A program made the position numbers and the translations under genes. Below the pieces are notes generated by a model, which had not been told where the DNA came from, made no database searches, and saw nothing but the letters and a program-made list of their open reading frames with translations. Positions 2,807 through 49,375 of a stretch of DNA of 50,291 bases are shown piece by piece. The stretch's first letter is position 1; each line of letters opens with the position of its first letter. The stretch is from the IMG/VR virus record IMGVR_UViG_3300003877_000002, positions 1 to 50,291 of that record. One strand, given 5' to 3'. This stretch comes from a virus. Its lineage: Duplodnaviria > Caudoviricetes.

Positions 2807-3618
2807 GCGTTTAGTGGCTCCTGTAGTATTGTAAGTAGTTTAAGGGTATCTCTTAGTTCTATTTCTAAAACAGACCAGTCTTTATAGTTACTAGCTTCCA
2901 TTGCATTACTATATGTATTACATACATAATGGTACATACTTGCTTCATCTTCCATGTGTACTAGAGGTTCTAAATACTTAGCCCTACACTTGACCTTAGT
3001 TAGTTTAAACAAACCCGGTATATTATCTGCTGTATCTCCAGTAAGCCACTGCCCATATAAATTCCTAAGAGCTTCTACTTTAGAAAGATAGTACTCAATC
3101 TTCTTATTTGGATTGTAATGCCAACCGGGAATAGTATCTAAGTCCTTATCAATAGAACTGATGATAGTAGTCTTGTCTTGGTATATACCACACAAGTCAT
3201 CAGCCTCAATATAGTCACCATACTCAGCTCCCCACTCATCTACTAGGTACTGCCTAATTTCATTGTAGTAGCTTGGTTTAGCTTTTGGGTCACGATTAGC
3301 CTTATAGTAATCTACTAAGTCATCCCTAAATGTCTTACCTTTAGTCAGGTATACTTGATACTGCTCACAGCCTGTATTAAAAAGAATCTCTTCTAGAGAA
3401 CTCTTGACTGTAGCTAGAACAATAGGTAAAGGATCTACCTGTACATGAGTTAATATCTCTGCTGTGTCATCTTTTCCTTGTAGATACTTTTTAAGTTCTT
3501 TCTTACTTCCAAATTGTATACCTTCTACTTCGTATGTTTTAGTCTCTGCTGCAAACCCAATAGCATATACATGAACATCCCCATCTATTAAAACAGTAGT
3601 TACTTCATCTCTATTCAT
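2743..3618 (-). CDS. 5'-3' exonuclease (T7 gp6/flap endonuclease-like)
   Basis: LIDGD, YKANR, EADD, SIDKDL, GDTADNIPG; GGAG RBS before the ATG at 3618. Confidence 0.9.
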   Translation of the reverse strand: MNRDEVTTVLIDGDVHVYAIGFAAETKTYEVEGIQFGSKKELKKYLQGKDDTAEILTHVQVDPLPIVLATVKSSLEEILFNTGCEQYQVYLTKGKTFRDDLVDYYKANRDPKAKPSYYNEIRQYLVDEWGAEYGDYIEADDLCGIYQDKTTIISSIDKDLDTIPGWHYNPNKKIEYYLSKVEALRNLYGQWLTGDTADNIPGLFKLTKVKCRAKYLEPLVHMEDEASMYHYVCNTYSNAMEASNYKDWSVLEIELRDTLKLLTILQEPLNAWRDIEEPMNTVDTNSEVSSS

Positions 3619-3652: not shown

Positions 3653-4162
3653 TCACTCTTTTTTATCTCCAAATATAACTATAGCACTAGGGAAGGGTGC
3701 AAATTGCCTTGCATTAGTCTTAGGATGTCTGATAGGCTCACCTCTAATTTCAAATGCTATCCTGCCTTTAATGAAGCGTACTTCTGCGTAAGGTATTACG
3801 TAGTCATGCCAGTAACGTGTATCTGTCCTAGAGGGAATTAACATAACTACTGTAAAACCAAAGTCCCTGCTTTCTTCATATGCCTTCTTAATCCAATGTT
3901 TTAATTCTGTGCCATAAGGCGGATTTAGGAATATAGCATTAGTAGTAGGATCAATGTAATCTTCCCAATATACAGTTAGGGCATTAGCATCTTCAGTAAA
4001 AATACCTAGCCCATATTCTTTTAACTTACAATTGTCATAAGTACAGGCAGCGTCTAGACCAAAGTGAAATTCAGCATCTAGCTCCTCGAAGAGAGACTGG
4101 GGTGTTTCCCAGTCATCTCTCTTAGAAGTGAAGTGTACCCTCAAATTTCTCTTCTTGGCCAT
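3653..4162 (-). CDS. phage DNA N6-adenine methyltransferase
   Basis: DDWETP, LDAAC, NPPYG, LIPSRTDT, FIKGRIAF. Confidence 0.9.
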   Translation of the reverse strand: MAKKRNLRVHFTSKRDDWETPQSLFEELDAEFHFGLDAACTYDNCKLKEYGLGIFTEDANALTVYWEDYIDPTTNAIFLNPPYGTELKHWIKKAYEESRDFGFTVVMLIPSRTDTRYWHDYVIPYAEVRFIKGRIAFEIRGEPIRHPKTNARQFAPFPSAIVIFGDKKE

Positions 4163-7516: not shown

Positions 7517-8722
7517 TTACTCCACTCGTGTTAAATACTGATTAAACCAAACCTTCAAGGGAATCTTATTCCCACTAATCTTATTCTTTACAAAAGAGAT
7601 CATTCTCTCTCCTCCTCTTTCCATTTCTTCTGTAGCTCCAATACCTAGAAGTAAGTCAGCAGTACCGGGAATACCTACATTAGAGAAGTCAATATCACCC
7701 CTACTTAAGTAGCTCTTACCTGTAGCACTGTCACCAGCTTGGGTTATCGAAATTGGTACTAGGTTATACTTTTTACCAACCTTTCTCATAAAAGAAGCTG
7801 CTTTCTCTAGACTTGTTACCTTATTGGTGTCTCCCATATCTAGGTTTCTTATCTGATCTACAATTAAGACATCAGGTTCATACTCTTTAATTAACTCTTC
7901 AATCTCCCACGGAGTACCGGGAGCTACTTCTGCGAAGGTAAAGTTATTGTATCCCTTAGCTTCCGCTAACTCTTGAGCTTTATCTGTATCTGCTTGTATC
8001 TCCTCTCTAGTACGCCCTGTAAGCCTCCACAGGAGCCTGAATATCATGTCATTAGCCGGGTCTTCATTTCCACACATTAGGACTTTTAAGCCCTGTTTAA
8101 GGAAACCGTAGGCCATATTTAGACAAAATAAGCTCTTACCCATATCAGTAGGTGCAAATACTACTACATGGTGTCCTCTTAAAACCCCTCCATTAAGCTG
8201 TTTGTTAAGGGAGAGAGGTAAAATAGCAATACGATTAGAAGCTGAATCATTACTGAGAATGTCAGCCACTTTCGGTGCTTGGTAGATTTCTGTTCCTGCT
8301 CCTTCTTCGGAAGCATTTAGGAGTTCCCCTTCTTTTAAACTGTGGTATCTGTCAATTAAATCTTCTACTTTTGCTTCTGTCTTTTTATTAGTTGTACCTA
8401 TTAGTTCCTGTGCCAATTTGTGTTTTACACTTTCTAATTTTAGTGCTATTACTTCTTCTAGCACATTAGCTGGTGATACAGGATCTAATCCACTTAGGAA
8501 GGTAGAGAAGAGTTCAGCATGTTTAGGATATTGTCTATTTATTATAGACTGTAGTATCTCTACATCTGCCCTTCCTATTTCTGGATCATTCTGGTAGTAT
8601 TGCTCTACTACTTTAAATATAATCTTAGCTTGGTCTGATAAATCCTCCTCTAGCTTAAGAGTTACTACCTCTTCGTAAATCTCTCTGTCAAGTATGACAG
8701 CACTTATTAGTTTTTGTTCCAT
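7517..8722 (-). CDS. DnaB-like replicative helicase
   Basis: Walker A APTDMGKS, LIVDQ, ITQA, ADLLLG, KNK. Confidence 0.92.
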   Translation of the reverse strand: MEQKLISAVILDREIYEEVVTLKLEEDLSDQAKIIFKVVEQYYQNDPEIGRADVEILQSIINRQYPKHAELFSTFLSGLDPVSPANVLEEVIALKLESVKHKLAQELIGTTNKKTEAKVEDLIDRYHSLKEGELLNASEEGAGTEIYQAPKVADILSNDSASNRIAILPLSLNKQLNGGVLRGHHVVVFAPTDMGKSLFCLNMAYGFLKQGLKVLMCGNEDPANDMIFRLLWRLTGRTREEIQADTDKAQELAEAKGYNNFTFAEVAPGTPWEIEELIKEYEPDVLIVDQIRNLDMGDTNKVTSLEKAASFMRKVGKKYNLVPISITQAGDSATGKSYLSRGDIDFSNVGIPGTADLLLGIGATEEMERGGERMISFVKNKISGNKIPLKVWFNQYLTRVE

Positions 8723-8730
8723 TATACCTC

Positions 8731-9717
8731 TTAAAGTTTAAGTAAACTACCTCCAAGAACTGCATTACCACATGTTATTAGACTGTCTTCTTCTTCCTGA
8801 GAAGGAATGAAAACAAGGGTATCGAAGCCTGCGGATTTACAGCTTTCTTCTACTTTTTTATAGGGTGTATATGAATTGTACCCATTTATTAGCTTTATGT
8901 TGTTTTTACTACAGGCTGAGTTATTATGTATTGGTGTTATTTTAACCATCCATTTATTTTTATCAAAAAGATTTGCTAATATTGCTCCCTTAACTTCATT
9001 ACCTGAAGCATACGCAATATTAAGACAATATTTTCTACCTATTGGTTCTGGTAACTCCTTAACCATATTAGATATATCATGTAAGCGCATACTACTGCCA
9101 CCAAACATTTTATTTCTTTGTTCCTCCTTAGTAGAATTAATACTTAGTTGTAATCCTGCTTGCCCATTAAATTGATTGTTTTTAATATCTACCCATTCAA
9201 AAAGTCTCTTTTTTGTTTTAGAATATTTAGGACACATCGTTGTCAAGACTGGATGTATTGTCTCTATCCTTATACCAGTCTCTTCTTGAAACTGCCTTTT
9301 TCTATTAGCAAGCCATAGAGAAAATAAAAATACATTCTCATTAAAGAGAGGCTCCCCCATTCGTGCAAAATGGATATTTAAGCGATCTGTATATTTAACA
9401 CCAGTCATTGCTAGAGCAGAGTATAGCTGTTTCTTTAAATCATTAATAGAAACATTACCTCTAAATGTAACATTAGGTACGTCACAAAATGTGCATTTCT
9501 GTACACAGCCATATTGTGTCGATAATGTAATTACCCATTTTTCTTGTAATGGCAATATTTCACCACTAGGTACGCCATTTATTTCTGTATTATGGCCAAG
9601 AAAATCAGCTTTTATATTCTTAGATTTTCCATAGTCTCCTATAGATAGTGCTTCTAGTTCTCCTTTACTATAAGTATCTGTAAATAAATAGCCTGTAGGT
9701 ATCTTTATTTTCTTCAT
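8731..9717 (-). CDS. RlmN/Cfr-like radical SAM protein
   Basis: STQYGCVQKCTFC (CxxxCxxC), MGEPLFN, LQLSINS, C-terminal TCGN. Confidence 0.85.
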   Translation of the reverse strand: MKKIKIPTGYLFTDTYSKGELEALSIGDYGKSKNIKADFLGHNTEINGVPSGEILPLQEKWVITLSTQYGCVQKCTFCDVPNVTFRGNVSINDLKKQLYSALAMTGVKYTDRLNIHFARMGEPLFNENVFLFSLWLANRKRQFQEETGIRIETIHPVLTTMCPKYSKTKKRLFEWVDIKNNQFNGQAGLQLSINSTKEEQRNKMFGGSSMRLHDISNMVKELPEPIGRKYCLNIAYASGNEVKGAILANLFDKNKWMVKITPIHNNSACSKNNIKLINGYNSYTPYKKVEESCKSAGFDTLVFIPSQEEEDSLITCGNAVLGGSLLKL

Positions 9718-9962
9718 TATGCTTCGAGTTCTTCATCTTTAGTTCGAGGTTCCTGATTATATATAAAATCTAACAACTCTCGTAATTCCTGTGTACCATA
9801 ATGCCAGCAACCTCCTTTTTCTAGACCACGATCATGTTCCATTTGTTTTTTAATTAACTTAACAACTTCAGCCCTACGTCTATGTATTCCTACTGTGAGT
9901 GTTTCATCATGATCTTCTGGCGCACATTCAGGACACCCACCACTACAATTTATTTCACACAT
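9717..9962 (-). CDS. small protein with Cys-rich N-terminus
   Basis: MCEINCSGGCPEC; stop overlaps the radical SAM start. Confidence 0.6.
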   Translation of the reverse strand: MCEINCSGGCPECAPEDHDETLTVGIHRRRAEVVKLIKKQMEHDRGLEKGGCWHYGTQELRELLDFIYNQEPRTKDEELEA

Positions 9963-9974
9963 TTTCTCAGTTCC

Positions 9975-10175
9975 TTATACTTTAGGGATAATTGTACCTC
10001 TTCGGTACTTAGCTTGTACTACTCCCATATCATCAATTAACAACGCCCACTCTATTTCATCATTTTCTTTTTCTATATTGAACTTCATAGCTCTCCAAAA
10101 ACCTATATCCCTAGCCCATTCTCTTTTATAAATAAAACCCCTCATATTCTTTTCTACACTTACATATCCAGACAT
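9975..10175 (-). CDS. hypothetical protein
   Basis: 66-aa ORF in the operon. Confidence 0.5.
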   Translation of the reverse strand: MSGYVSVEKNMRGFIYKREWARDIGFWRAMKFNIEKENDEIEWALLIDDMGVVQAKYRRGTIIPKV

Positions 10176-10975
10176 TTCTTTAACTCCTCTTCTGGTAAAT
10201 CTTTAGGATCTGCTTCTAGAGATCTAACTTCAAATTTCTTGAAGTAGAACCCAAACTTCTTCTTATATCTGAAGGCCTTATCTGTAGCATCTGGATCTAG
10301 TAAGACCACAATACTGTCAGTATGTTCCCTCAGCTCTCTAATTCTTTCATTATTTAGGTGTGTACCAAGTAAGGCCACAGTCCTAGAGTACCTTAGACAT
10401 CTAATCGCTGATAGTACGTCCTCAACCAGAGCAATCTGTCCTTTTCTTTCTGTGAGAGGGTAATGGAGCCCTGTAGTCCTCTTAGTGAAGAATGTAAGGC
10501 TTTTAGTACCAGCTTTTCCTCGAAAGTTAAGCTTCTTCGTGATTCCTCCAAATACTTCACCTCTTGCTGTAAAGCACGGCATATAGAGACTATTGTACTT
10601 TCTGTCGTATCTGAACCCTTGTTCATGGAGTTCCTCCTCAGTCAGGGTGTACTTTGTTGATAGTTCCTCAAGTATCTCTTTGGGTAGGAGTTCTAACTCT
10701 CCACTAAACTCACGAGGAACAAATTGTTTCTTCTTTTTCCTACCTTCTCCATTCAGGAGAATACTTCCCGGTACAGAACTGATGAAGCCTCTGGCTCCAC
10801 AGGAGGCTCTGTAACAGTTGTACAGGAGTCCCTCATCAATCCTTGTCAGAGACATCTTCATCTCGTGAGGTACTCTACAGAAAGGACAGAGAGTATTTAG
10901 GCTGTCCCCTACCTCAAGGGACAGGGCAGCCTCTTTAAGTACTTCTTCAGACAGTAGTCTGTCGCTGTGTTTCAT
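10160..10975 (-). CDS. DNA primase (Zn finger + TOPRIM)
   Basis: CPFC..H..CYRASC; VEDVLSA, LLGT, LLDPDA. Confidence 0.9.
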   Translation of the reverse strand: MKHSDRLLSEEVLKEAALSLEVGDSLNTLCPFCRVPHEMKMSLTRIDEGLLYNCYRASCGARGFISSVPGSILLNGEGRKKKKQFVPREFSGELELLPKEILEELSTKYTLTEEELHEQGFRYDRKYNSLYMPCFTARGEVFGGITKKLNFRGKAGTKSLTFFTKRTTGLHYPLTERKGQIALVEDVLSAIRCLRYSRTVALLGTHLNNERIRELREHTDSIVVLLDPDATDKAFRYKKKFGFYFKKFEVRSLEADPKDLPEEELKKCLDM

Positions 10976-11130
10976 TATTTCTTAGTAAATAATAGTGTTT
11001 CACAAGATGTACAACGATAGGCATCTTGTGTCGCAGTTCCTTTGTGTGTTTTATTAGCTACTCTTTTACTAGTACCATACTTTTTATCCTGATAGGAATT
11101 GGTACAATTGCATGTTAATATTTTACTCAT
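10975..11130 (-). CDS. 51-aa putative Zn-binding protein (not in ORF track)
   Basis: MSKILTCNC...YRCTSC; AGGAG RBS; TAATG overlap with primase. Confidence 0.75.
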   Translation of the reverse strand: MSKILTCNCTNSYQDKKYGTSKRVANKTHKGTATQDAYRCTSCETLLFTKK

Positions 11131-11299: not shown

Positions 11300-11572
11300 C
11301 TAACTACACCATCCACAAGAACCAAAACTAAGTCCTTCCTCTAATTTCTCTATAACTTTTCTATACTCTTCTTCAGTTATACTATATTTATCTAGTATAG
11401 TTACAGTTGAGGGTTTGCCTATAAATGTCATATCACCACAACAGTAGTCTTTCGCGAACTCACTACCTAAATCAACATTACTTCCAAAATCATCACTATC
11501 TGCGATAACAGTATTTATTGTAAATACTTCTGTTGTACACAAACAGCTAAATACCTTTAATTCAAGTTTCAT
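11300..11572 (-). CDS. hypothetical Cys-rich protein
   Basis: CLC, CC and terminal CGWC. Confidence 0.65.
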   Translation of the reverse strand: MKLELKVFSCLCTTEVFTINTVIADSDDFGSNVDLGSEFAKDYCCGDMTFIGKPSTVTILDKYSITEEEYRKVIEKLEEGLSFGSCGWCS

Positions 11573-11579
11573 ATATCTC

Positions 11580-12815
11580 TTATCCTTTAATATTAATTAG
11601 GGGACTAATGTAAGCAACTACTTCTACTAAATCTCTCTGCAAGTTCATGACTTCAAAGATATTCTTATAGGCTCCGGGTGACTCATCTAGTGTATCTTCT
11701 ATAACTAGAGCTTGTACATCTGCCATAGTTCTTTGGAAAAAATTAAAATCTAAGTCTCGTTTAGCCTGCTTGCGACTCATTACACGACCAGCTCCATGAG
11801 AACTTGACCAGAGAGATAGGGGATTGCCCTTACCTTTTACGATAAATGAGCCATCTCGCATATTACCGGGAATTACTCCCAGCATACCTTCTTCCGCGTG
11901 TGTGGCACCCTTACGGTGAATCCACAGACCATTACGTTCTACAGCATGATTATGGTTGCGATTGATTAATTCATCGAAGCTAGGTTCCCAGTCTACACAC
12001 CCAAGTACATGACTAATAATATTAATAGTTCGTATCATCATTGTTTTACGATTCTCAAGGGCATACTCTAGACACCAGTTCATATCCTGAATATAGTTCT
12101 TACCTTCCTGTGATTCTACTTTAAAGTTATAGTGTCCTTCTTTAGGACGTGCTCTACCCATTCGCTTATTTACCCAATTACTCTTTAACTTTTCGTAGCG
12201 ATCAGGGTTGTATTTAAGTACATCCTTATGTCCTTCATCAAATTCATCTTCAAGTATACCTCGATCACTAGAGGCTAGTGTCATATAATGTGTAGCAATC
12301 GCGTGTCCTACACCTCGGCTACCTGAGTGTATTACAACCCATACATTAGCTCCGCCGTCTACACCAATCTCAATAAAGTGGTTGCCTCCACCTAGAGAAC
12401 ATAGAGCTCTGTTCCAGTTTTTAAGGGCTGCGATTTCCTTACCACGATTAGTCAATCCTGCTATAGGATATACATTTCTTTTAGGATCATGGGCTTTACT
12501 AATATGGAACCCTACAGGAATACGCGTATAGATCAGATCAAAGATTTCTTTACTATGTTTAATTATTTGCTTAGGATCAATACCCTCTAATTTCAAGGCA
12601 CACATACCGCAACCAATATCATAACCTACCCAAGCAGGTACTACTACACCATCAGTAGCTACTACAGCTCCAATGGGTAGAGAGTAGCCTGTATGAGCAT
12701 CTGGCATAAGAGCACCAGCTACTACAAAGTCTTGTGCCATAGCACTATTGAATTGTTCTAGTGCAGTGTCTTCAAGTATCTCTGCAAAGATATTAACTTG
12801 TTTTTCTGTTTTCAT
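11580..12815 (-). CDS. rtcB: RtcB family RNA ligase
   Basis: MPDAH, GYDIGCG, GGGNHFIE, HSGSRG, NHNH, HRKGAT, HGAGR, DESPGAYK. Confidence 0.96.
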   Translation of the reverse strand: MKTEKQVNIFAEILEDTALEQFNSAMAQDFVVAGALMPDAHTGYSLPIGAVVATDGVVVPAWVGYDIGCGMCALKLEGIDPKQIIKHSKEIFDLIYTRIPVGFHISKAHDPKRNVYPIAGLTNRGKEIAALKNWNRALCSLGGGNHFIEIGVDGGANVWVVIHSGSRGVGHAIATHYMTLASSDRGILEDEFDEGHKDVLKYNPDRYEKLKSNWVNKRMGRARPKEGHYNFKVESQEGKNYIQDMNWCLEYALENRKTMMIRTINIISHVLGCVDWEPSFDELINRNHNHAVERNGLWIHRKGATHAEEGMLGVIPGNMRDGSFIVKGKGNPLSLWSSSHGAGRVMSRKQAKRDLDFNFFQRTMADVQALVIEDTLDESPGAYKNIFEVMNLQRDLVEVVAYISPLINIKG

Positions 12816-12816
12816 G

Positions 12817-13173
12817 TCACCATTCTCCGTCTTCGATTACTTCATATTTATTATATTCTGCTGGATAGTTTAAGTAGTACATCCAAACATCTGCTTCCTT
12901 ATTTCCAAGTTGTATAGTAAATTTCTCTCTGTTGTAGAATGTTGGGAAGCCCTCAAGCATATCCAACCTGTCCAATTTCTCTACTTTATAGACCTCTCCT
13001 TTAATCGTAGAAGTAGGTATATCCTTTAAGACACCGGGGAAGCCACCTAAACTAACCATAGTATATTTATTGCTAGTATAAGCATTACTTATGAACTTAG
13101 AATCTACACCTAAAACAGAGTGATTAGAATAGTCCTTCTTTAAAGATCCATAAACAAACACTAGTTCACACAT
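12817..13173 (-). CDS. gamma-glutamylcyclotransferase (AIG2-like)
   Basis: VFVYGSLK, GEVY, LDMLEG. Confidence 0.92.
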   Translation of the reverse strand: MCELVFVYGSLKKDYSNHSVLGVDSKFISNAYTSNKYTMVSLGGFPGVLKDIPTSTIKGEVYKVEKLDRLDMLEGFPTFYNREKFTIQLGNKEADVWMYYLNYPAEYNKYEVIEDGEW

Positions 13174-13972
13174 TATTCAACACCTTATCTAGTAGACACA
13201 AGTTAGCCTCGTGATAATATTCTTTTGACACATCTTTACTCTTACAAAGAAGATCATTTGTAAAACTTTGAATACCAGTATCATCATGTATTTTACTAGT
13301 AAATACATACTTCTTACAATCTCCTATAGATCTAAATTGCTCAACAAAAGGATTCTCCATAAATTTAGAGAATTGTTTATAGTTTTTACTTATTGTATAT
13401 AAGATACCATAATCAGTTCCAGAATTATGTTGAGCTATGAATTTATTGATACCTCCTTCAAGGGTATCAGTATAATCATATTTCTCTACTCCATAGAAAG
13501 CACAGCGTAATAGTAGAGTAAATAGAGACATTACAGGAGCATTATTTAAGAATATTCTAGGGAAGGTTACAATATAATTATATTTTCCTGTTATACTAGT
13601 GCCTATATCTCCGAAGACTACTTTAGTTTCTTCTATACGGAAATAACTACCTGTCTCTTCACAAAATAAATCAAGTAAATGCAGATCTTTAAGCTCTTCA
13701 TCAAAAGTAAGTAACATTTTAATCTCAGAAGCATTGTACATACTCTGAGAATAGTCCCAAGTAAATCCATATATCTCAAATGGATAAGCACCATTAGTAT
13801 TTTGGTGATATACTACGTCGTTAAAATAGTCACGGCACTTAACTAGTGGCATTACATTCTTGTAGGTATCTGTACCATTAACTTTTTGTAACAGAGCGAA
13901 TCTGACTGCTTTAGTCTGGCTATTCTCAGTAAGACCAAGCCTACCTTGGCTATATAGTTTTACAGTATCCAT
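13166..13972 (-). CDS. hypothetical protein in the amidoligase cluster
   Basis: 268 aa, overlapping both neighbours. Confidence 0.75.
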   Translation of the reverse strand: MDTVKLYSQGRLGLTENSQTKAVRFALLQKVNGTDTYKNVMPLVKCRDYFNDVVYHQNTNGAYPFEIYGFTWDYSQSMYNASEIKMLLTFDEELKDLHLLDLFCEETGSYFRIEETKVVFGDIGTSITGKYNYIVTFPRIFLNNAPVMSLFTLLLRCAFYGVEKYDYTDTLEGGINKFIAQHNSGTDYGILYTISKNYKQFSKFMENPFVEQFRSIGDCKKYVFTSKIHDDTGIQSFTNDLLCKSKDVSKEYYHEANLCLLDKVLNNV

Positions 13973-14817
13973 TATTTATGTTTCTCCATATAAGTTTCAA
14001 TTGCTTTTATGTAGGCATTAAAGGTAGTAGGACTTGACATTCCCGGTGCTGAGTTGACTTCACATACTAGAGCTTCTAGAAGCATTCCATTATCACTGTA
14101 CTTAGCTAAAATATCTACGCCACAATAATCTGCACCTACTGCTTCTGCTGCTTGTATACCGATTTCTTCAATGGTACCTCGACTAGGTAGACCTCCATCA
14201 CAAATTAGATCCTTGTGTGCAAATACCCATCCCTTCTTATGGTTACGTGTAAGCTCATCTACTTCTTTAATACCTCTTTCAGCACGTTTTTTAGATCCCA
14301 TTCGCTTCTTCTGTATTAGATCAATGGCTACTCCATCGAATACATGTACTCGAAATTCATGTGTCTTATCGAAGAATTTTGTATATAGAGGAGCTGAAAC
14401 AAGATCACCTTTATTTTCTACTAACTCAATACCTTTACCTTGTTTTCCATTAAGGATGTGACGTATAATTACTTTATCTCCATTATCGATCCATATTCTT
14501 GCATCAGCACGTACAGTGGACATAGCTAAACAAGGCACTTCTTTTGTTGATAGTAGCTTAAGAGTAGTTAGCTTATTGACGCAATTACCTACGGCACTAG
14601 GAGAGTTGATCATCTTAACTCCGCGTACTGCTGCATCTTCCCACCAGATAGGTAGCTGGCTACGGCCATAGTTAAATACAAATGAGTTATCCTTTACTTT
14701 AATGTTAGGACGATAACCACATGTTACTTGGTTTGCATTAAAATGGTTAGCAAGCTTACGACCTACTCCCGGTACATCCTTACGTACACGCAAGATATTT
14801 AGTTTTTCATTGAACAT
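13972..14817 (-). CDS. ATP-grasp (RimK-like) ligase
   Basis: NKLTT, QGKGI, EFRVHV, GVDIL, EVNSAPG. Confidence 0.9.
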   Translation of the reverse strand: MFNEKLNILRVRKDVPGVGRKLANHFNANQVTCGYRPNIKVKDNSFVFNYGRSQLPIWWEDAAVRGVKMINSPSAVGNCVNKLTTLKLLSTKEVPCLAMSTVRADARIWIDNGDKVIIRHILNGKQGKGIELVENKGDLVSAPLYTKFFDKTHEFRVHVFDGVAIDLIQKKRMGSKKRAERGIKEVDELTRNHKKGWVFAHKDLICDGGLPSRGTIEEIGIQAAEAVGADYCGVDILAKYSDNGMLLEALVCEVNSAPGMSSPTTFNAYIKAIETYMEKHK

Positions 14818-14832
14818 TATTTTTACTTCTCC

Positions 14833-16152
14833 TTAGTCAGAATAAAGTTTTTCAGCACAGTCATAGCAGATTGGGTCATCTTGTAGACTCCAATCAAGAT
14901 CTTCTGCATCATCAACAGAGAGATTACAGCTACAAAAAGAACAACCTCTCTTAATTAGTTTCTCATACTCCTCTTCAGTTATATTTTTACCATCTGGCCC
15001 AAGTACCATTTTAATCACGTTATTGTCTTCTTCCTCTGGAGCTGGTAGTTCCTTTACTACGTGTAGTTTAATAGAATCTCCTTTGAGTACCAGTTCATAT
15101 CCACCAGTCAGCTTATAGGCTCGTTCAGCTACACCAGTAAGGTTAGTAGTTTCTGTAAGTATACCGTCTTTCTCTAGATCAGACAGCTTAACATTATACG
15201 CTACAACTAAATCTACCACACCACTAGAGGTAATTGTTTCACCTTTAATAGTACCAAAATATCCATCAGCTTGTTCAGTATACTTAGTTACTTTAAGTTT
15301 AGAGAACATAATTACTTCATTTTTTATATAGCCTATATCTAGTAACTGTTTTTCTGCTGGTGTACTATAAGTATTATGTTTAGATTTACCATTACCTTTA
15401 CCAGTACCGTAACCACCATACCAATCGGAATCAGCCCACTTATTAGTAGGTGCTAATATATCAAAAGATTTCTTACTCTCTTCAATTTTAGTAGCTCCTA
15501 ACTTAAATGTAAAGTGTCTACCGATAGGTAATTTTTCAACCGCTTCGAGGTTATATGTTTTTGGCATAATACCACTAATCATCCAAGGCTCAGAGGCGTA
15601 GAATAAGGCTTTCCCATCAGTGGAGTAAGCAAAGTGCATAGGCCTTTCATCGTTTCTAGCCATATGTAGTGTGTGGTCTGTAGAGTCATACCATACTAAA
15701 GCGTATGCCCCATCTAACTTTGGTAAAACGTCCTCTGCTCCAGCAGTTGAGAAGGCTTTACAAATAGCTTCGCTATCTGTAGGGAACTCATTTTTTAAGC
15801 CATTAAAAGAGATTAGTGTGCCATTATGTACTAGTGTTATATTACCATGTGAAAAAGGATGTGCATTTACAGCAGTCTTTTTACCCTTAGTAGCCCAGCG
15901 ATTATGACCAATTACATAATCATAAGTATCTATATTATATAGTAACTTATCTACTTTAGCCATGTTAATAAAATCATATCCTGCCATAGCTTTCTTATAT
16001 AGAAGAATATCTTTAGAGGCTTTTACTAACGCTAGACCTGTGCTGTCCTCACCTCTGATTGTATCTACATATAGAGCCTTCTCTAACCAAGCTCTGCGAG
16101 CTGTCCAGTTGACAGATTTTTCCATTGAGATCATTCCTACAATTCCACAAAT
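14833..16152 (-). CDS. class II (Ntn) glutamine amidotransferase, probable AUU start
   Basis: The frame extends upstream of the track ORF to ATT-TGT-GGA-ATT-GTA-GGA (CGIVG); RGEDSTG, GHNRWAT, NAHPF, HNGT, TDSE. Confidence 0.92.
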   Translation of the reverse strand: MCGIVGMISMEKSVNWTARRAWLEKALYVDTIRGEDSTGLALVKASKDILLYKKAMAGYDFINMAKVDKLLYNIDTYDYVIGHNRWATKGKKTAVNAHPFSHGNITLVHNGTLISFNGLKNEFPTDSEAICKAFSTAGAEDVLPKLDGAYALVWYDSTDHTLHMARNDERPMHFAYSTDGKALFYASEPWMISGIMPKTYNLEAVEKLPIGRHFTFKLGATKIEESKKSFDILAPTNKWADSDWYGGYGTGKGNGKSKHNTYSTPAEKQLLDIGYIKNEVIMFSKLKVTKYTEQADGYFGTIKGETITSSGVVDLVVAYNVKLSDLEKDGILTETTNLTGVAERAYKLTGGYELVLKGDSIKLHVVKELPAPEEEDNNVIKMVLGPDGKNITEEEYEKLIKRGCSFCSCNLSVDDAEDLDWSLQDDPICYDCAEKLYSD

Positions 16153-16224
16153 TTTCTCATCTCCTAGACTAATAAATTAGTCTGTTAGTTTACCCATTTC
16201 CAATGGGTGTGGGTTACAGTACTA

Positions 16225-17145
16225 CTACTTTTTCTCATATTCAGATAAAATTTTAAATACATCCCATTCCGCCATTTGTATCTCTGTTGGGTGTGTTAGT
16301 TCTCTAACTAACAATAGAGCCTCCTTCATATTACTCCTCAGTTTATAATTAAAATCAATTACTGTATTATCAGGTAAGACTCTTTTTACAAAAGACTCTA
16401 AACCAAATTTGTGTATATCTTTTAGTATATCTTTAGGATCTTCATATGCTATAGCTGTTTCATATATACTTATAAGTATATTTATCCATGCCTTAAGCTT
16501 TACTGTGCTGTAACACCCTTGTAGCATTCTATATTCTATAGAGCCAAACTTACGCAATGCTGCAAAGTTTATACCCGCATATCTATAACCGTCACTAAAT
16601 TTCTGCATCATTTCATAAGATACATTGAAGGATAAATCTTTACTTTGTATATTAGTGCGTATATTATGTATTACTTCTTGTTTATCTGTTATTGGCAGAG
16701 AGAAAGGAGATAGAGATCTATACTTTCTACAGTAAGCAAATAATACAGGCTCCATAAAAAGAGATAAGAGTATAAAATTAGTAAGTTTATTTGTATCCAA
16801 AGATCTAACATCGACATGTACGTGTGTACTTGTCCTATAGCTGATTATTGGAGTTAGATCATTACTTATAATATAGTTCTCTAACTCAGTAAGTGCTTTG
16901 ATAGTATCAAAAGTACCTAATGGTAAAGAAAACCTAGCTTCTACTGCATCATCTCCGCGTAAAGAGTCGTCATAAGTGAATGCCCAATAGATACTAGTAT
17001 CACTAAGTTCTTTGATAGGACAATTTTCTAATTCAATTTCTATACCTAATAGAACATCGGAAGGAACTAATTCAGTAGAAGTCTTAAAGCTTCTAGGATC
17101 TGCTTGGTGGCTTGTAAGGTTTACAACTGGTACATTTTTATACAT
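16225..17145 (-). CDS. putative amidoligase (COOH-NH2 ligase fold)
   Basis: GIEIE, DDSL, THVHV, RYAGINF, GSIEYRMLQG. Confidence 0.88.
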   Translation of the reverse strand: MYKNVPVVNLTSHQADPRSFKTSTELVPSDVLLGIEIELENCPIKELSDTSIYWAFTYDDSLRGDDAVEARFSLPLGTFDTIKALTELENYIISNDLTPIISYRTSTHVHVDVRSLDTNKLTNFILLSLFMEPVLFAYCRKYRSLSPFSLPITDKQEVIHNIRTNIQSKDLSFNVSYEMMQKFSDGYRYAGINFAALRKFGSIEYRMLQGCYSTVKLKAWINILISIYETAIAYEDPKDILKDIHKFGLESFVKRVLPDNTVIDFNYKLRSNMKEALLLVRELTHPTEIQMAEWDVFKILSEYEKK

Positions 17146-17815
17146 CTATAATCTCCACAGTTATTTGTCCATGTAATAGACAGATTAGATCTCTTTTTAG
17201 AAAAGCAAGAGACTTAGGCACTAGAAGTTTATCAACCAGTACCCCTATTAGATTATTTTTATAATAGAGTACTAAAGAGTTTTTTATCTTGCCTAAAGCT
17301 AAGTGTCTAGTTATTACTGCACTGTTAATTTTACCACTATTTATAGCAGAAATGGCTTGTTTAATAGAGTAAGTTTTATTACGTAATAGCCCATGTAAAA
17401 AATTATTATGATCAGTAGTGTACTTAACTTCCTCCTTCTCAAAAGGGTTTACTGCACTTGGGAGCTTAGTTAAGATAGTCTGCACATTATGCTTTAGTGT
17501 AAAAGATCTCTTCCATTGCTTCATATGATCAGCTTGCATATAATAAGCATCTTTTCTTAGCTGTACATAGCCTGAGTTTTTATATACAGGATAGAATTTA
17601 AGTTTAGTAAAATTTAGTACTCTGTCATATTTTTTACCATTTTTATATAAAATACCTTCCAAGAGAATATCATTACCTATTACAGGATTCTCTCTAAAAC
17701 TATAGCGTACTTCTTGTATAAAAAATAAATGCTCTCCTTTTTTATCTAGCTCTTTAATCGCTACATATGTATTTTCAAATTTTACTTGAATTTCTTTAAG
17801 TATATCTAGTTTCAT
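17138..17815 (-). CDS. hypothetical protein in the amidoligase cluster
   Basis: 225-aa basic ORF. Confidence 0.7.
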   Translation of the reverse strand: MKLDILKEIQVKFENTYVAIKELDKKGEHLFFIQEVRYSFRENPVIGNDILLEGILYKNGKKYDRVLNFTKLKFYPVYKNSGYVQLRKDAYYMQADHMKQWKRSFTLKHNVQTILTKLPSAVNPFEKEEVKYTTDHNNFLHGLLRNKTYSIKQAISAINSGKINSAVITRHLALGKIKNSLVLYYKNNLIGVLVDKLLVPKSLAFLKRDLICLLHGQITVEIIDV

Positions 17816-17859
17816 TAGAAGATAGCCTCTTCTGGTACGGTTTGTGGTGCAGTAACCAT

Positions 17860-18705
17860 TTATACTTGATCAATCATAAGGTCATCAAAATAGGAACTTT
17901 TAGGCATTCTAATCTCATTCTCCTTAATAATACTTTCAGCCATATCCTTATCGTGAGTGTCTATACACTTTCTAATCTCTTCAAAGAACTTCTTTTTATG
18001 GCTAGATACAGTAACTCTATAATCATATGCTCTATTAGCTGCTTGAAATATCCATTTCATTAGTTGTTTATTCTCAAGCCAAAAATTAGATGGTGTGCGA
18101 TACTCTACTCCATAAGGTTTAGGTCTAAAGCAACCAGCCTTGCCATAGAGACTACGTCTTTCTTTATCAGGATCTAATAGAATGGAGGGTACTCCAATAA
18201 ATAAATCACACATTAGTATAGTGTTAATCTGTTCTTTCATGTTGATAGTACTTTTAAAGCCAATGTGGATGTGACCAGCAGCAGTACGTAAGTTTTTAGC
18301 CATACCACTATTTATCTGTGTTGTCGTGTCTAAGTGCCATACGTTATAGTCTTCGTCACAGCCGAAAGCCTGTGCTTCTGGATGCAATAATAAATCTTCA
18401 CTCTCCCCTTCATAAAAATGAGAAGGCTTAATGAGATACTTCTTACCTTTAGGCTCAAGATATTGTTTATCTATAGCTTGTAGAGTCCATAGTATATTGT
18501 GTACAAAGGTAGTTGGATGTCCGGCGGGACATATGTTCAACTCACCTAAAACATTATCTCGATGCACTGATCCTTCTTCACATACTTCTACCTGCTTATC
18601 CTTAGTGCCGGGGATAATACCAATTGCAGTCTCAATTTCTTTACTCGCTATATCTTGTATGAAAAATTCTGGGTCTGCTCCAATTAAAGTACTGCTCATT
18701 AGCAA
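17860..18705 (-). CDS. phiEco32-like COOH-NH2 ligase type 2
   Basis: IGADPEFF, DNVLGE, FGCDED, RTAAGHIHIG, RRSLYGKAG, YGVEYRTPSNFW. Confidence 0.92.
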   Translation of the reverse strand: MLMSSTLIGADPEFFIQDIASKEIETAIGIIPGTKDKQVEVCEEGSVHRDNVLGELNICPAGHPTTFVHNILWTLQAIDKQYLEPKGKKYLIKPSHFYEGESEDLLLHPEAQAFGCDEDYNVWHLDTTTQINSGMAKNLRTAAGHIHIGFKSTINMKEQINTILMCDLFIGVPSILLDPDKERRSLYGKAGCFRPKPYGVEYRTPSNFWLENKQLMKWIFQAANRAYDYRVTVSSHKKKFFEEIRKCIDTHDKDMAESIIKENEIRMPKSSYFDDLMIDQV

Positions 18706-18739
18706 ATCTCCTTAATGTCAAGATTGTGGTATAGATATT

Positions 18740-19366
18740 TCATAGTAGTTTGTCCTTTAAAGTTTTAATGAAAAATTTGAATCCTTCAGAGCTTTCAGAC
18801 ATCCATTCAGGATGATATTGAAAACCTAAGCAGCGAGTAGTAGGCCAGAAGACTACCTCTGGTTCTCTCCCTGCTAATTTACTGTGAAAGTTTTTAACCT
18901 TTACTTTACCTCCTGTCTCGAATACTGTAGACTCTTTAGCCCACGCTAGGAGCTCATAGTCTCCCTTCGGATAGATCATTTGATGATGATCACCAGTAAC
19001 AGTAAGCATTTTATCGTCAGGTGTGTGGATTATATGATCACAAGAGTTGTGATTGTTTACATGTTGAATCAATACACCACGGTTCATTACATTTAAGAAT
19101 TGAGCACCACGACAAATACCTACCATAGGTAGTTCAAGTATCTTACAGTGGTTATATACTTCAAGCTCAAAGAAATCCCTACTCTTGTCTGAGTAGGTTT
19201 TGTCAATTTTATTATCGTCATAGAAGTAAGGATCTACATCAGATCCCCCAGTAAACACAACTAGATCACAGTCAGCTAATTTACTGACGTTACTAATCGG
19301 TTTACCAAGGGAAGTAAATGCATCCTTATACTTATTATTATCACCTTCAAGTACTAATATTTTCAT
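18740..19366 (-). CDS. class I glutamine amidotransferase / peptidase C26 (gamma-glutamyl hydrolase-like)
   Basis: FTGGSDVDP, GICRGAQ, QYHPE; start at 19366 after AGGAG. Confidence 0.9.
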   Translation of the reverse strand: MKILVLEGDNNKYKDAFTSLGKPISNVSKLADCDLVVFTGGSDVDPYFYDDNKIDKTYSDKSRDFFELEVYNHCKILELPMVGICRGAQFLNVMNRGVLIQHVNNHNSCDHIIHTPDDKMLTVTGDHHQMIYPKGDYELLAWAKESTVFETGGKVKVKNFHSKLAGREPEVVFWPTTRCLGFQYHPEWMSESSEGFKFFIKTLKDKLL

Positions 19367-19578
19367 CTTTCTCCTAGTCCGTATCTTTCTATATCTCTTC
19401 TGCCTACTTCTCCATTCCAACAAGCTAAACAACAGGGTAATAGAGGAGCTTTTATATCTTCTTGTGATACGTACCAAAACCCAATATCATCAGCAAAATC
19501 ATTAACGTTCCCACAGTGTCCACAAATTATTCCGTCTGGATCATCTATTTTTGCTAATTCTAAATCTTTATCAAACAT
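19363..19578 (-). CDS. small Zn-finger-like protein
   Basis: CGHC...CLAC; likely start MFDKDL. Confidence 0.55.
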   Translation of the reverse strand: MFDKDLELAKIDDPDGIICGHCGNVNDFADDIGFWYVSQEDIKAPLLPCCLACWNGEVGRRDIERYGLGER

Positions 19579-25283: not shown

Positions 25284-25359
25284 CGCTCTTTAGTGTAATT
25301 GATAAGCATAGGGGACTTTGACTCCCCTAGTCTAGGTTTGAGTCCTAGAAGAGCTGCCA
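25284..25359 (+). tRNA. tRNA-Gln(UUG)
   Basis: GGGGA-CTTTGAC-TCCCC anticodon arm, CTAGG/CCTAG T-stem, encoded CCA. Confidence 0.9.
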
Positions 25360-47140: not shown

Positions 47141-47477
47141 AAGTAAGTACCTTTAAAAATAAATTATATTTAATAGCTAAATCGATCATGTGTTTTGTTC
47201 CTTTAGATTTACCATCCCAAAAAGCTAACAGTCCCTCTGCCTGCTTAGCCATTTGCTCATTTCTTATATACCCTGCTGGTTTGCCATATTTATCCCAATT
47301 AGCAGGAAATTCTTTAATTGGTACATCACATTCATTAGCCCATTCTTCTCCAAGATTATCAGCTCCCTTAGCTTTCCTGCTAATAACCTCAGTAATAGGG
47401 GTGGGCCAGCTCTCAGCAACATTAACTAATGTATTATAATCATTAAAGTCTCTACCTCCAGCAATAATTACTTTCAT
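47133..47477 (-). CDS. YspA-like SLOG family protein
   Basis: IIAGGRDF, AKGAD, AGYIRNEQM, WDGKSKGT. Confidence 0.88.
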   Translation of the reverse strand: MKVIIAGGRDFNDYNTLVNVAESWPTPITEVISRKAKGADNLGEEWANECDVPIKEFPANWDKYGKPAGYIRNEQMAKQAEGLLAFWDGKSKGTKHMIDLAIKYNLFLKVLTYE

Positions 47478-49375
47478 TATACTTCACACGAGTTAGCTGT
47501 ACAAGCTAATTCCTTCATTGCAGTTGTCATATCTTCTTCCTCAGTACTAAGGTTCCAGTCTATCTCTTCTGGCATCTTAGCTAATAGTTCATTGTATTCT
47601 TCTTCAGTTATTTCCTGATAGGGTGCCTGCTTATAAGAATGGTTTGAGTGTGGTAGGAAGCTAACTCCACTACACATATCAAAGTTCTCATATACCCACG
47701 CACCTACTTCCATCCATTCCTCTTCCTTAACATAGACAGTGATACTTGGCTTATGTTCACAATAATACTTAGCATACACCTTCCATAACTCCAACTGTTC
47801 TATAGCATTCCTATCATCTCGATACACACTATTCTCTGGACTCTTAATAGGAAAAGAGAATATATAGGTACTATTAGGTTTAGTTACATCATCTTCAACT
47901 GGTACACCACTCTCAAGTAAAACTTGGCTTACTGGATCCTTTTTGTCAGCACGTACAGTCCTAACGTAATAGGGGCTGTACCGAGGATGAATCCCGCTAG
48001 CACTGTTAACAAGCTGAGAAACAGTCCCACTAGGCTTAACACAAGTAATAGCAGTAGCAGGATTAATACCGAGTTTATCACTCCATTCTTTATTCGTTTC
48101 AATTGCCACCTCTTTTAATTGTCGTAACCAATCATCACAATCTAGTTCAGACAAGAAGGGATGATCCATTATACCTGTTAAACTCACGCCAAGTAGAGCT
48201 TCCTCCTCAGTATTCTTCTTCCAAGCAGAACTTAAATACCTAAAATCTGTAAGAGTTGCTTGGAGGGTTCCGAGTATTGTTGCAAGTCTGACCTTGTTCT
48301 TAAGGGACTCCAAGGTGTCGTCGGATCGCACAACGACTTCAGAAAGATTGCAGAATTGCTTTGGGCGTAAGATAATTTCAGAGCACGGATTTGTTCCGAA
48401 GTCTGCTGGTTCCCTACGGCCATTTCGTAACGCCGTTTTAATAGCTGCTTCGCGGTTAAAGATCCCCCTCTCTCCGCTTTTACTTTCATATAAAGCACTC
48501 CACTCTTTCATCCAGATACCCATATCAGGCTTTTCAGTATAGCAGACAGAGTTATTAGCTAGGGCTCTCTGCCCATTCTCTTCCCACCAATTACCACTCT
48601 TGGCTACCCGCATTCTCTCATCAGTAAGATTAGAAAGAGAAATGAGAGCAGAGCGACGGACACCTCCTACTACCACGATGTCAGCAACCTTGCACATAAG
48701 ATCATGGCACTCAATGGACGTAAGTTTTCTTCCTCGTGCATTAGTAAATACCTCCACAGTAAAAGTAAATAGGTCTAGTAGTGGCTGAGGGCCACTAGCT
48801 CTACCACCAAAGGTCTTCAGAGGAGCTCCAGCAGGACGTATCTTAGAGACATCCCACTGTGGTACTTGTCCTGAGTAGAGCAGAGAGATGAGCTCACGAT
48901 AGGCCCTAGCCCACCCAATTTTACTATCCGCTACCTTAATTACTGTATCTGTAGGTTCCATTTCTTCAGCGATCTCAGGTAGTTTATTAATGTACTGACG
49001 TTCCACTGAGAAGCCTACACCTGTACCACAGCAGAGGATATAGAGAGTCTCATCAAAAGCTCGTGGTGAATCTACAGCTAGATAAGAGCAATTGAAGCCA
49101 GCTACATTATCACGGTCAAGTGCCTTACCTGCTGTCATCAGAGATCTCATACTTGGCATTACTTCTAGATTTATTATGTGTGACTCAAGATCACCTCTAA
49201 TATTCCCAATCCCAATAGTATTATCAAAATAATCAATATATCTGCGTACTGTTTCATTCCAACTCTCTCTCCTCTTCTCTTCTGGCAACCATCGTGCGTA
49301 GCGACTCTTGTGGATATATTCTGAATAGATGCTGACGGCATCGGAACTCTGTTCCTTATCACTCATTAAAATCAA
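47477..49375 (-). CDS. nrdJ: class II (B12-dependent) ribonucleotide reductase, monomeric RTPR type
   Basis: FNC, GGVRRSA, NPCSEI, CVKPSGTVSQL, terminal C-x4-C; no beta subunit gene; likely start 49366. Confidence 0.93.
   Translation of the reverse strand: MILMSDKEQSSDAVSIYSEYIHKSRYARWLPEEKRRESWNETVRRYIDYFDNTIGIGNIRGDLESHIINLEVMPSMRSLMTAGKALDRDNVAGFNCSYLAVDSPRAFDETLYILCCGTGVGFSVERQYINKLPEIAEEMEPTDTVIKVADSKIGWARAYRELISLLYSGQVPQWDVSKIRPAGAPLKTFGGRASGPQPLLDLFTFTVEVFTNARGRKLTSIECHDLMCKVADIVVVGGVRRSALISLSNLTDERMRVAKSGNWWEENGQRALANNSVCYTEKPDMGIWMKEWSALYESKSGERGIFNREAAIKTALRNGRREPADFGTNPCSEIILRPKQFCNLSEVVVRSDDTLESLKNKVRLATILGTLQATLTDFRYLSSAWKKNTEEEALLGVSLTGIMDHPFLSELDCDDWLRQLKEVAIETNKEWSDKLGINPATAITCVKPSGTVSQLVNSASGIHPRYSPYYVRTVRADKKDPVSQVLLESGVPVEDDVTKPNSTYIFSFPIKSPENSVYRDDRNAIEQLELWKVYAKYYCEHKPSITVYVKEEEWMEVGAWVYENFDMCSGVSFLPHSNHSYKQAPYQEITEEEYNELLAKMPEEIDWNLSTEEEDMTTAMKELACTANSCEV

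Follow-up and report, generated by a model that had tools for sequence, protein, structure and literature searches.

The 50,291-bp viral sequence IMGVR_UViG_3300003877_000002 (hereafter the window) constitutes a complete genome bounded by direct terminal repeats, and it encodes an RlmN/Cfr-like radical S-adenosylmethionine (SAM) protein, here termed rSAM. We found that rSAM, which stands alone, belongs to a very large family that is uncharacterised and sister to the methylases RlmN and Cfr. This family comprises thousands of proteins, mostly viral, which have kept the methyl-carrier cysteine of RlmN, lack the resolving cysteine and have lost the N-terminal region. We tentatively favour, with rather less than even confidence, the reading that rSAM is a one-cysteine RlmN-type enzyme acting on a heteroaromatic metabolite related to nicotinamide adenine dinucleotide (NAD), carried by the phage as an accessory or counter-defence gene. 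The mode of turnover of a one-cysteine family would extend the known RlmN/Cfr mechanism, and the embedding of relatives in NAD operons and in clusters resembling the phage NARP2 pathway suggests that NAD metabolism includes a radical step not yet recognised, or that phages have a new answer to NAD-depleting defence. Both the question of turnover and that of NAD are directly testable with this small, stand-alone enzyme.

A preliminary description of this locus, made from the nucleotide sequence, had proposed an RlmN/Cfr-like enzyme on the strength of a CxxxCxxC motif, an MGEP motif and a C-terminal TCGN, and translation of the open reading frame (ORF) bore out all three (Table 1). Pfam gave a sub-threshold match to Radical_SAM (PF04055; 21.8 bits vs a cut-off of 29.5); motif and predicted fold would nevertheless place rSAM in the radical SAM superfamily. 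The best NCBIfam matches were RlmN/Cfr models, which covered residues 55–153 only and fell below their curated cut-offs (TIGR00048, TIGR04432 and NF008396; 29.3, 26.7 and 25.1 bits vs 290, 550 and 633, respectively). The match to phrog_24834 was near full length (E = 3.8e-104; rSAM residues 2–324 on profile positions 5–325 of 336), although membership of this group explains nothing because it has no functional annotation. Relatives are named in the databases either as 'hypothetical protein' or with automatic RlmN labels. Among PDB sequences, searched with phmmer and with a family profile, RlmN (4pl1, 5hr6, 3rf9) and Cfr (9p0p) were matched over residues 55–130. Distant members of the family cover positions ~83–352 of the 355 in the RlmN model at 31–65 bits, and homology therefore reaches the C-terminal cysteine.

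Structure prediction agreed with this placement. An AlphaFold2 model built from 32 homologues (mean predicted local distance difference test score (pLDDT) 83.7; predicted template modelling score 0.85) was compared with the PDB using Foldseek. RlmN was the best match (E ~3e-8, template modelling score 0.5–0.6), followed by Cfr and then the pyruvate formate-lyase-activating enzyme, with the RlmN and Cfr matches spanning E values of 3e-8 to 2e-6. The best match among viral structure models was a phage protein labelled 'COG0820'. Since RlmN and Cfr head the fold matches and the relatives align over ~83–352 of the RlmN model, the shared motifs go beyond chance; with an RlmN-type core fold, CxxxCxxC and a Cys355-type cysteine all present, the assignment as an RlmN/Cfr-like enzyme stands. 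The likeness to RlmN (m2A2503 in 23S rRNA and m2A37 in tRNA) and Cfr (m8A2503) extends to a partial TIM-barrel core, CxxxCxxC, SxQxGC, MGEP and a C-terminal CG[Q/N].

There are also differences from RlmN and Cfr. The first cluster cysteine is residue 71 in rSAM vs residue 125 in Escherichia coli RlmN, and model matches begin at RlmN positions 83–103 of 355 with none in the first ~80, from which it follows that ~54 N-terminal residues of RlmN are absent. The N-terminal accessory domain that precedes the core in RlmN and Cfr is thus missing from rSAM. The phage subfamily has in addition a conserved 28-residue insertion, which corresponds to gaps in RlmN and in the distant clade. This insertion may form a substrate lid, and residues 30–54 are predicted to be disordered (pLDDT <50). 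Net charge and isoelectric point did not separate the family from RlmN.

To place the cysteines, the E. coli RlmN sequence (from NC_000913.3) was aligned with the family by MAFFT. T64 fell opposite C118, C71/C75/C78 opposite C125/C129/C132, and C316 opposite C355 (TCGN vs AACGQ). Searches with phmmer and hmmsearch against PDB chains likewise paired WVITLSTQYGC with ATL[C118A]VSSQVGC of RlmN. The earlier proposals that the TCGN cysteine corresponds to Cys355 and that threonine occupies the Cys118 position are both upheld by these alignments. The missing resolving cysteine is real, but it is not peculiar to this phage; it is a trait of the whole family, which numbers 4,130 proteins at E ≤ 1e-5 in a 90%-clustered collection and 476 representatives at E ≤ 1e-3 in a 50%-clustered library, with members on 479 viral contigs. 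We tallied the cysteine columns over the 120 listed close homologues and the 56 listed representatives of at least 250 amino acids (aa), aligned with RlmN; the 94 listed representatives below 250 aa were left out as fragments. In the Cys118 column, all 120 close homologues have threonine, and the 56 representatives have T (16), N (11), I (6), V (5), M (4), A (3), S (3), L (2), E (2), F (1), D (1) or a gap (2), such that cysteine occurs in 0/120 and 0/56, respectively, and in none of the 176 aligned members. Because the column is variable outside the subfamily, there is no selection there for one particular non-cysteine residue.

The remaining cysteines divide into two classes. The CxxxCxxC triad is invariant among the close homologues (120/120) and nearly so among the representatives (50–53/56), and C316 is the sole cysteine outside this triad that is retained family-wide, with cysteine in 120/120 close homologues and 33/43 ungapped representatives. 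C231 and C269 are confined to the phage-like subfamily. Cysteine occupies the C231 column in 115/120 close homologues and 2/55 representatives (T276 in RlmN), and the C269 column in 116/120 and 7/48. Judged from these columns, C231 alone is a candidate to stand in for the missing second cysteine, and this within the phage subfamily only.

In RlmN, methyl-Cys355 is used for radical addition to an adenine carbon and a second cysteine resolves the covalent adduct, whilst the C118A mutant forms no m2A and remains attached to RNA by the cross-link (PMC5130265). Lacking an equivalent of Cys118, the rSAM family is therefore unable to run the RlmN mechanism unchanged. Of the options put forward in the preliminary description, 'new chemistry or substrate' is the one that the evidence favours, textbook RlmN action being impossible without this residue. 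To our knowledge, class-A radical SAM methylation has so far comprised two RNA enzymes, RlmN and Cfr, each with an obligatory cysteine pair.

Genomic context bears on what such an enzyme might do. Cellular relatives were collected by scanning species-representative genomes and fell into two tiers: tier A, 45 phage-like loci with 41–61% identity to the rSAM query, and tier B, 34 loci with 27–32% identity and labels that include Elusimicrobia, Myxococcota, Thermoplasmata and a Heimdallarchaeon, among others. Four tier A loci on gut alphaproteobacterial contigs (L107, L108, L109 and L129; rSAM 44–45% identical to the query) place the gene within a tightly packed NAD cluster. In L107, L108 and L129, the order is NAPRTase (PncB), PncA-like protein, rSAM, NadE, DUF5662 and NrtR-like Nudix regulator, and L109 has the same PncB, PncA-like, rSAM, DUF5662 and NrtR-like cluster without NadE. 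Spacers flanking rSAM in this cluster measure 5–12 bp, and its PncA-like protein is an isochorismatase with nicotinamidase as best NCBIfam match. PncB, rSAM and NadE also occur in that order in L128, which is labelled as a Bacilli metagenome-assembled genome (MAG), NadD lies 0.6 kb upstream of rSAM in L115, and PncB lies 4.7 kb from rSAM in L124. Other alphaproteobacterial loci have prephenate dehydratase, resolvase and ankyrin-repeat proteins as neighbours.

In tier B, a TrxR-like flavoprotein was found in 23 and an isochorismatase-family hydrolase in 18 of the 34 loci, directly upstream of rSAM or fused to it, with one or both present in 27/34. The single flavoprotein that was read, that of L151, has no CxxC motif. 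This conserved module of isochorismatase, TrxR-like flavoprotein and rSAM, with its fused variants, spans loci L131–L161 under diverse bacterial and archaeal labels, and in four loci a B12-binding radical SAM gene lies nearby. Fusions of the family itself include a QueT-like S-component of energy-coupling factor (ECF) transporters joined to rSAM and a PNP_UDP_1 domain (P0135, P0159), S-component with rSAM (P0142, P0160), flavoprotein with rSAM (P0249, P0252) and rSAM with isochorismatase (P0258). The PNP_UDP_1 domain bears the source name MTA/SAH (5'-methylthioadenosine/S-adenosylhomocysteine) nucleosidase and is 30–40% identical to ordinary MtnN genes. A search for the three-domain fusion in 300 genomes from the same class as G046, a Bacilli-labelled MAG, turned up ordinary MtnN genes only.

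Taken together, the transporter fusions, the nucleosidase, flavoprotein and amidohydrolase partners, and the NAD operons with an NrtR-like gene argue for a small-molecule enzyme that turns over. These contexts (NAD salvage, amidohydrolase, transporter) set the family apart from RlmN and Cfr, with their RNA substrates, and would not be anticipated for an RNA-modifying enzyme or for a suicide trap. The latter had been raised in the preliminary description as a covalent trap of host rRNA or tRNA. With such a trap, each molecule would cross-link once, in stoichiometric fashion, to the RNA or to an adenine-containing signal. Although the absence of cysteine from the Cys118 column and the behaviour of RlmN C118A described above are what such a trap would look like, the one-cysteine trait is common to thousands of relatives, cellular and phage, and the column is variable. 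Moreover, some relatives carry a fused MTA/SAH nucleosidase, which would clear a by-product, or a fused flavoprotein reductase, and others belong to operons that combine housekeeping NAD genes with a gene for an NrtR-like Nudix regulator. The trap fits poorly because these fusions and NAD-salvage operons suggest turnover, and we consider it very improbable.

RlmN chemistry directs a cysteine-bound methylene radical onto an electron-poor ring carbon beside a nitrogen. By analogy, chemically comparable targets may be offered by the pyridine ring in nicotinamide, nicotinate or their nucleotides and by the adenine moiety of NAD or ADP-ribose. In the reading we favour, rSAM would retain SAM cleavage to the 5'-deoxyadenosyl radical, and C316 would serve as methyl/methylene carrier or as radical relay. 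Instead of rRNA or tRNA, the substrate would be an NAD-family metabolite, a small and electron-poor N-heteroaromatic compound, with the nicotinamide or nicotinate ring and the adenine of NAD/ADP-ribose as candidates. Resolution of the cysteine–substrate adduct would involve no internal disulfide and would rely on another base, an external reductant or the substrate ring as leaving group, and in the phage subfamily C231 is a further candidate for this step. In the phage, the enzyme would act alone with host enzymes, altering or sustaining an NAD-related pool during infection. A more specific version, recruitment of an RNA enzyme to a metabolite such that an S-methyl/S-methylene-cysteine radical acts on a ring, pyridine or adenine, of an NAD-family compound, with either C-methylation or the reverse removal of a substituent as outcome, is speculative and, by our estimate, unlikely. 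If this version holds, NAD salvage in phages and some gut bacteria would include a previously unknown step by a radical SAM enzyme, which would also give phages a new counter to NAD-depleting immunity.

Several viral loci place rSAM in a comparable setting. The order NMNAT/Nudix, rSAM, Nampt was observed in L022; in L044, NMNAT/Nudix lies 1.4 kb upstream and Nampt 0.4 kb downstream of rSAM, and in L065 Nampt lies 0.7 kb downstream. L013, a 165-kb viral contig estimated to be 39% complete, carries between positions 3026 and 11291 PncB, two other radical SAM genes, the RlmN-like rSAM, a glutamine-dependent NadE, a 305-aa protein with weak nicotinamidase (PncA) similarity, a NadD-like gene and Nudix. 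The two additional radical SAM proteins (222 aa and 343 aa) are both MoaA-like at the N-terminus, and the three consecutive radical SAM genes may form a multi-step radical pathway tied to NAD. Members of the rSAM family thus lie between or beside genes of NARP2 type (NMNAT/Nudix, Nampt) and of the Preiss-Handler type, which recalls the phage pathways NARP1, NARP2 and NARP3; the phage of the window differs in having no NARP genes. No radical SAM component is mentioned in the main text of the NARP1/2 preprint or in the available part of the NARP3 paper, and the term radical SAM is absent from the main text, so far as it was accessible, of a survey of NAD and ADP-ribose genes in viruses (PMC9503650). 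A full-text literature search returned no study of the rSAM family and none tying radical SAM to NARP or NrtR clusters.

A number of observations weigh against an NAD-related substrate. The link is drawn from neighbourhood counts that are uncorrected for genome size and concern a minority of loci: NAD genes occur in 4/81 viral loci and in 7/45 tier A loci. We know of no radical SAM enzyme of NAD salvage, and the only significant sequence and structure matches of rSAM are RNA methylases. The phage subfamily does not necessarily share its chemistry with the distant clade. The genome of the window itself has no match to PF04095 (NAPRTase family) and no isochorismatase or TGT gene, and among 48 rSAM-bearing phage records isochorismatase was over the cut-off in none. 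A NAPRTase-family gene was present in 7/48 of these records, within ~2.5 kb of rSAM in 4/7. This frequency represents no enrichment, since NadV is carried by 22% of medium and 33% of jumbo phages (PMC9503650), and the proximity of NAD genes may partly be an effect of accessory-gene islands.

The same side of the balance includes genes of RNA repair. RtcB lies 1.9–5.7 kb upstream of rSAM in 7/81 viral loci from four unrelated backgrounds, the window included, and these backgrounds have only the rSAM and RtcB clusters in common. L009/L040 have a Thg1-like gene 51 bp upstream of rSAM, a third locus has one at a distance of 4.3 kb, and one locus, L065, carries an RNA ligase. These neighbours are consistent with an RlmN/Cfr-like adenine C-methylase of tRNA or rRNA, with the adduct resolved by C231 or an external thiol, through which the phage would change tRNA, of host or phage origin, or ribosomes, for instance to shield tRNA from anticodon nucleases. 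The best sequence and fold matches, the conserved cysteine of the CG[N/Q] motif and the conservation of C231 and C269 in the phage subfamily all fit such an activity. So does the single tRNA of the phage, a tRNA-Gln(UUG) with A after the anticodon, whose E. coli counterpart is an RlmN substrate (PMC5130265). However, ~54 N-terminal residues of RlmN are absent, scores lie far under the curated cut-offs, and C231 is missing from the wider family although C316 is kept. Fusions to transporter and nucleosidase, isochorismatase–flavoprotein operons and NAD-salvage operons are unexpected for an RNA methylase, and tRNA genes were near rSAM in just 6/44 loci scanned. We therefore rate RNA methylation as unlikely, though it is to be taken seriously. 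The RtcB homologue of L065 (L065:316-2505) is 729 aa long vs ~390–410 aa elsewhere and could be an intein-containing or fused form.

Modification of phage DNA or deoxynucleotides, for instance adenine C-methylation as a protection against restriction, would suit the position of rSAM in the replication module. The preliminary description had located the gene between primase and helicase, and both neighbours were confirmed by family matches. Genes of replication and recombination likewise surround rSAM in Bacteroides phage Versailles, and in Moorella phage MTATph1 a thymidylate synthase gene is found two genes from it. It also stands alone amid variable neighbours, much like orphan DNA methyltransferases. 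In the annotated records of Vibrio phage D479, Aeromonas phage Ahp1 and Salmonella phage Arash, the neighbours are mostly hypothetical. Yet no conserved precursor-handling partner was found, TGT/DpdA (PF01702) is present in 0/48 rSAM-bearing phage records, homologues occur in cellular NAD operons and transporter fusions, and we know of no C-methyladenine DNA. DNA modification is in our view improbable.

A link to 7-deazaguanine or queuosine, considered because some relatives are fused to a QueT-like S-component, was rejected. QueL of queuosine salvage is a radical SAM enzyme acting in base salvage, but as a fold match (6p78) it ranked 39th in Foldseek (E = 7e-4), no nearer than generic radical SAM enzymes, and PF01702 was absent from the phage records as given above.

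No conserved neighbour of rSAM was found among the 81 viral loci, these being the window and 80 related loci in which ORFs were called and then clustered by BLASTP. The largest neighbour cluster covers 12/81 loci, all belonging to a single group of gut phages related to one another. In ten loci of that same group (L061 (2110–2817), L069, L072–L076 and L078–L080), a protein with crAss001_48 and Tad2-like (Thoeris anti-defence 2) domains lies 1.2–4.9 kb upstream of rSAM.

The lack of a conserved neighbour extends to the 81-aa protein encoded directly upstream of rSAM in the window, which begins with MCEINCSGGCPEC, that is C-x3-C-x3-C-x2-C. The coupling described earlier is present, with the TAA stop of this ORF overlapping the rSAM ATG (TAATG). 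It had further been suggested that the small protein could be a metal or Fe-S partner, or could supply a thiol in trans. The overlap and the N-terminal four-cysteine cluster are what recommend a dedicated partner of this kind. The protein, however, matched no family in Pfam, NCBIfam or PHROGs and only itself in a word-index search of 5.8 billion proteins (lengths 44–142 aa). It was a singleton in the clustering of the 81 loci, with no homologue in the 80 related loci, including those in which rSAM is 69–76% identical. Genes directly upstream of rSAM are mutually unrelated even at that level of identity, and phage Versailles (rSAM 49.7% identical) has other small proteins at the flanks. As a lineage-specific orphan, the 81-aa protein is therefore not the general thiol or metal partner of the family, and it was rejected as a conserved partner; that it is a dedicated partner of rSAM giving a thiol, metal or Fe-S cluster in trans is very unlikely. 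A complex prediction for rSAM (alignment A1) with this protein scored 0.00 and was counted neither way. Two further small Cys-rich ORFs of 51 aa and 90 aa, with several CxC/CC pairs and no Pfam family, lie nearby on the minus strand (10975–11130 and 11300–11572). Such proteins are therefore common in the early region and not special to rSAM.

Table 1 Coordinates of rSAM, its motifs and selected features in the window.
Feature	Position	Strand	Remarks
RlmN/Cfr-like radical SAM (rSAM) ORF	8731..9717	-	328 aa; phrog_24834, function unknown
CxxxCxxC [4Fe-4S] motif CVQKCTFC, C71/C75/C78	9484-9507	-	Coordinates checked by translation
T64, in the column of RlmN Cys118 (resolving cysteine)	9526-9528	-	Alignment and translation
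MGEP, M120-P123, also in RlmN (MGMGEP)	9349-9360	-	Alignment and translation
TCGN; C316 = RlmN Cys355 (AACGQ), methyl-carrier cysteine	8764-8775	-	Alignment and translation
C231 (RKYCLN)	9025-9027	-	Cys conserved in the phage-like subfamily only; column tallies
Subfamily insertion GDYGK..NIKADFLG.., residues 27-54	9556-9639	-	Many invariant columns, alignment A1
81-aa orphan ORF	9717..9962	-	Overlaps the rSAM start as TAATG
Toprim/phrog_47 primase	10160..10975		Upstream of rSAM, with two small ORFs (one of 66 aa)
DnaB-like helicase	7517..8722		8-base gap after rSAM; followed by DNA polymerase A
RtcB RNA ligase	11580..12815	-	PF01139, E = 1e-86; 1.9 kb upstream of rSAM
tRNA-Gln(UUG), single tRNA of the phage	25284-25359	+	A after the anticodon; at the strand-switch region

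Elsewhere in the window, a run of genes on the minus strand (12817–19477) encodes a GGACT (gamma-glutamyl cyclotransferase-like) protein, an ATP-grasp (RimK-like) protein, a class-II glutamine amidotransferase, Amidoligase_2, a phiEco32-like COOH-NH2 ligase, a Peptidase_C26/GATase protein and two ORFs matching no family, and resembles a cassette for the ligation of peptides or metabolites. A Dam-type N6-adenine DNA methyltransferase (3653–4162) and a class-II (B12-dependent) ribonucleotide reductase (47477–49375) are also encoded on the minus strand.

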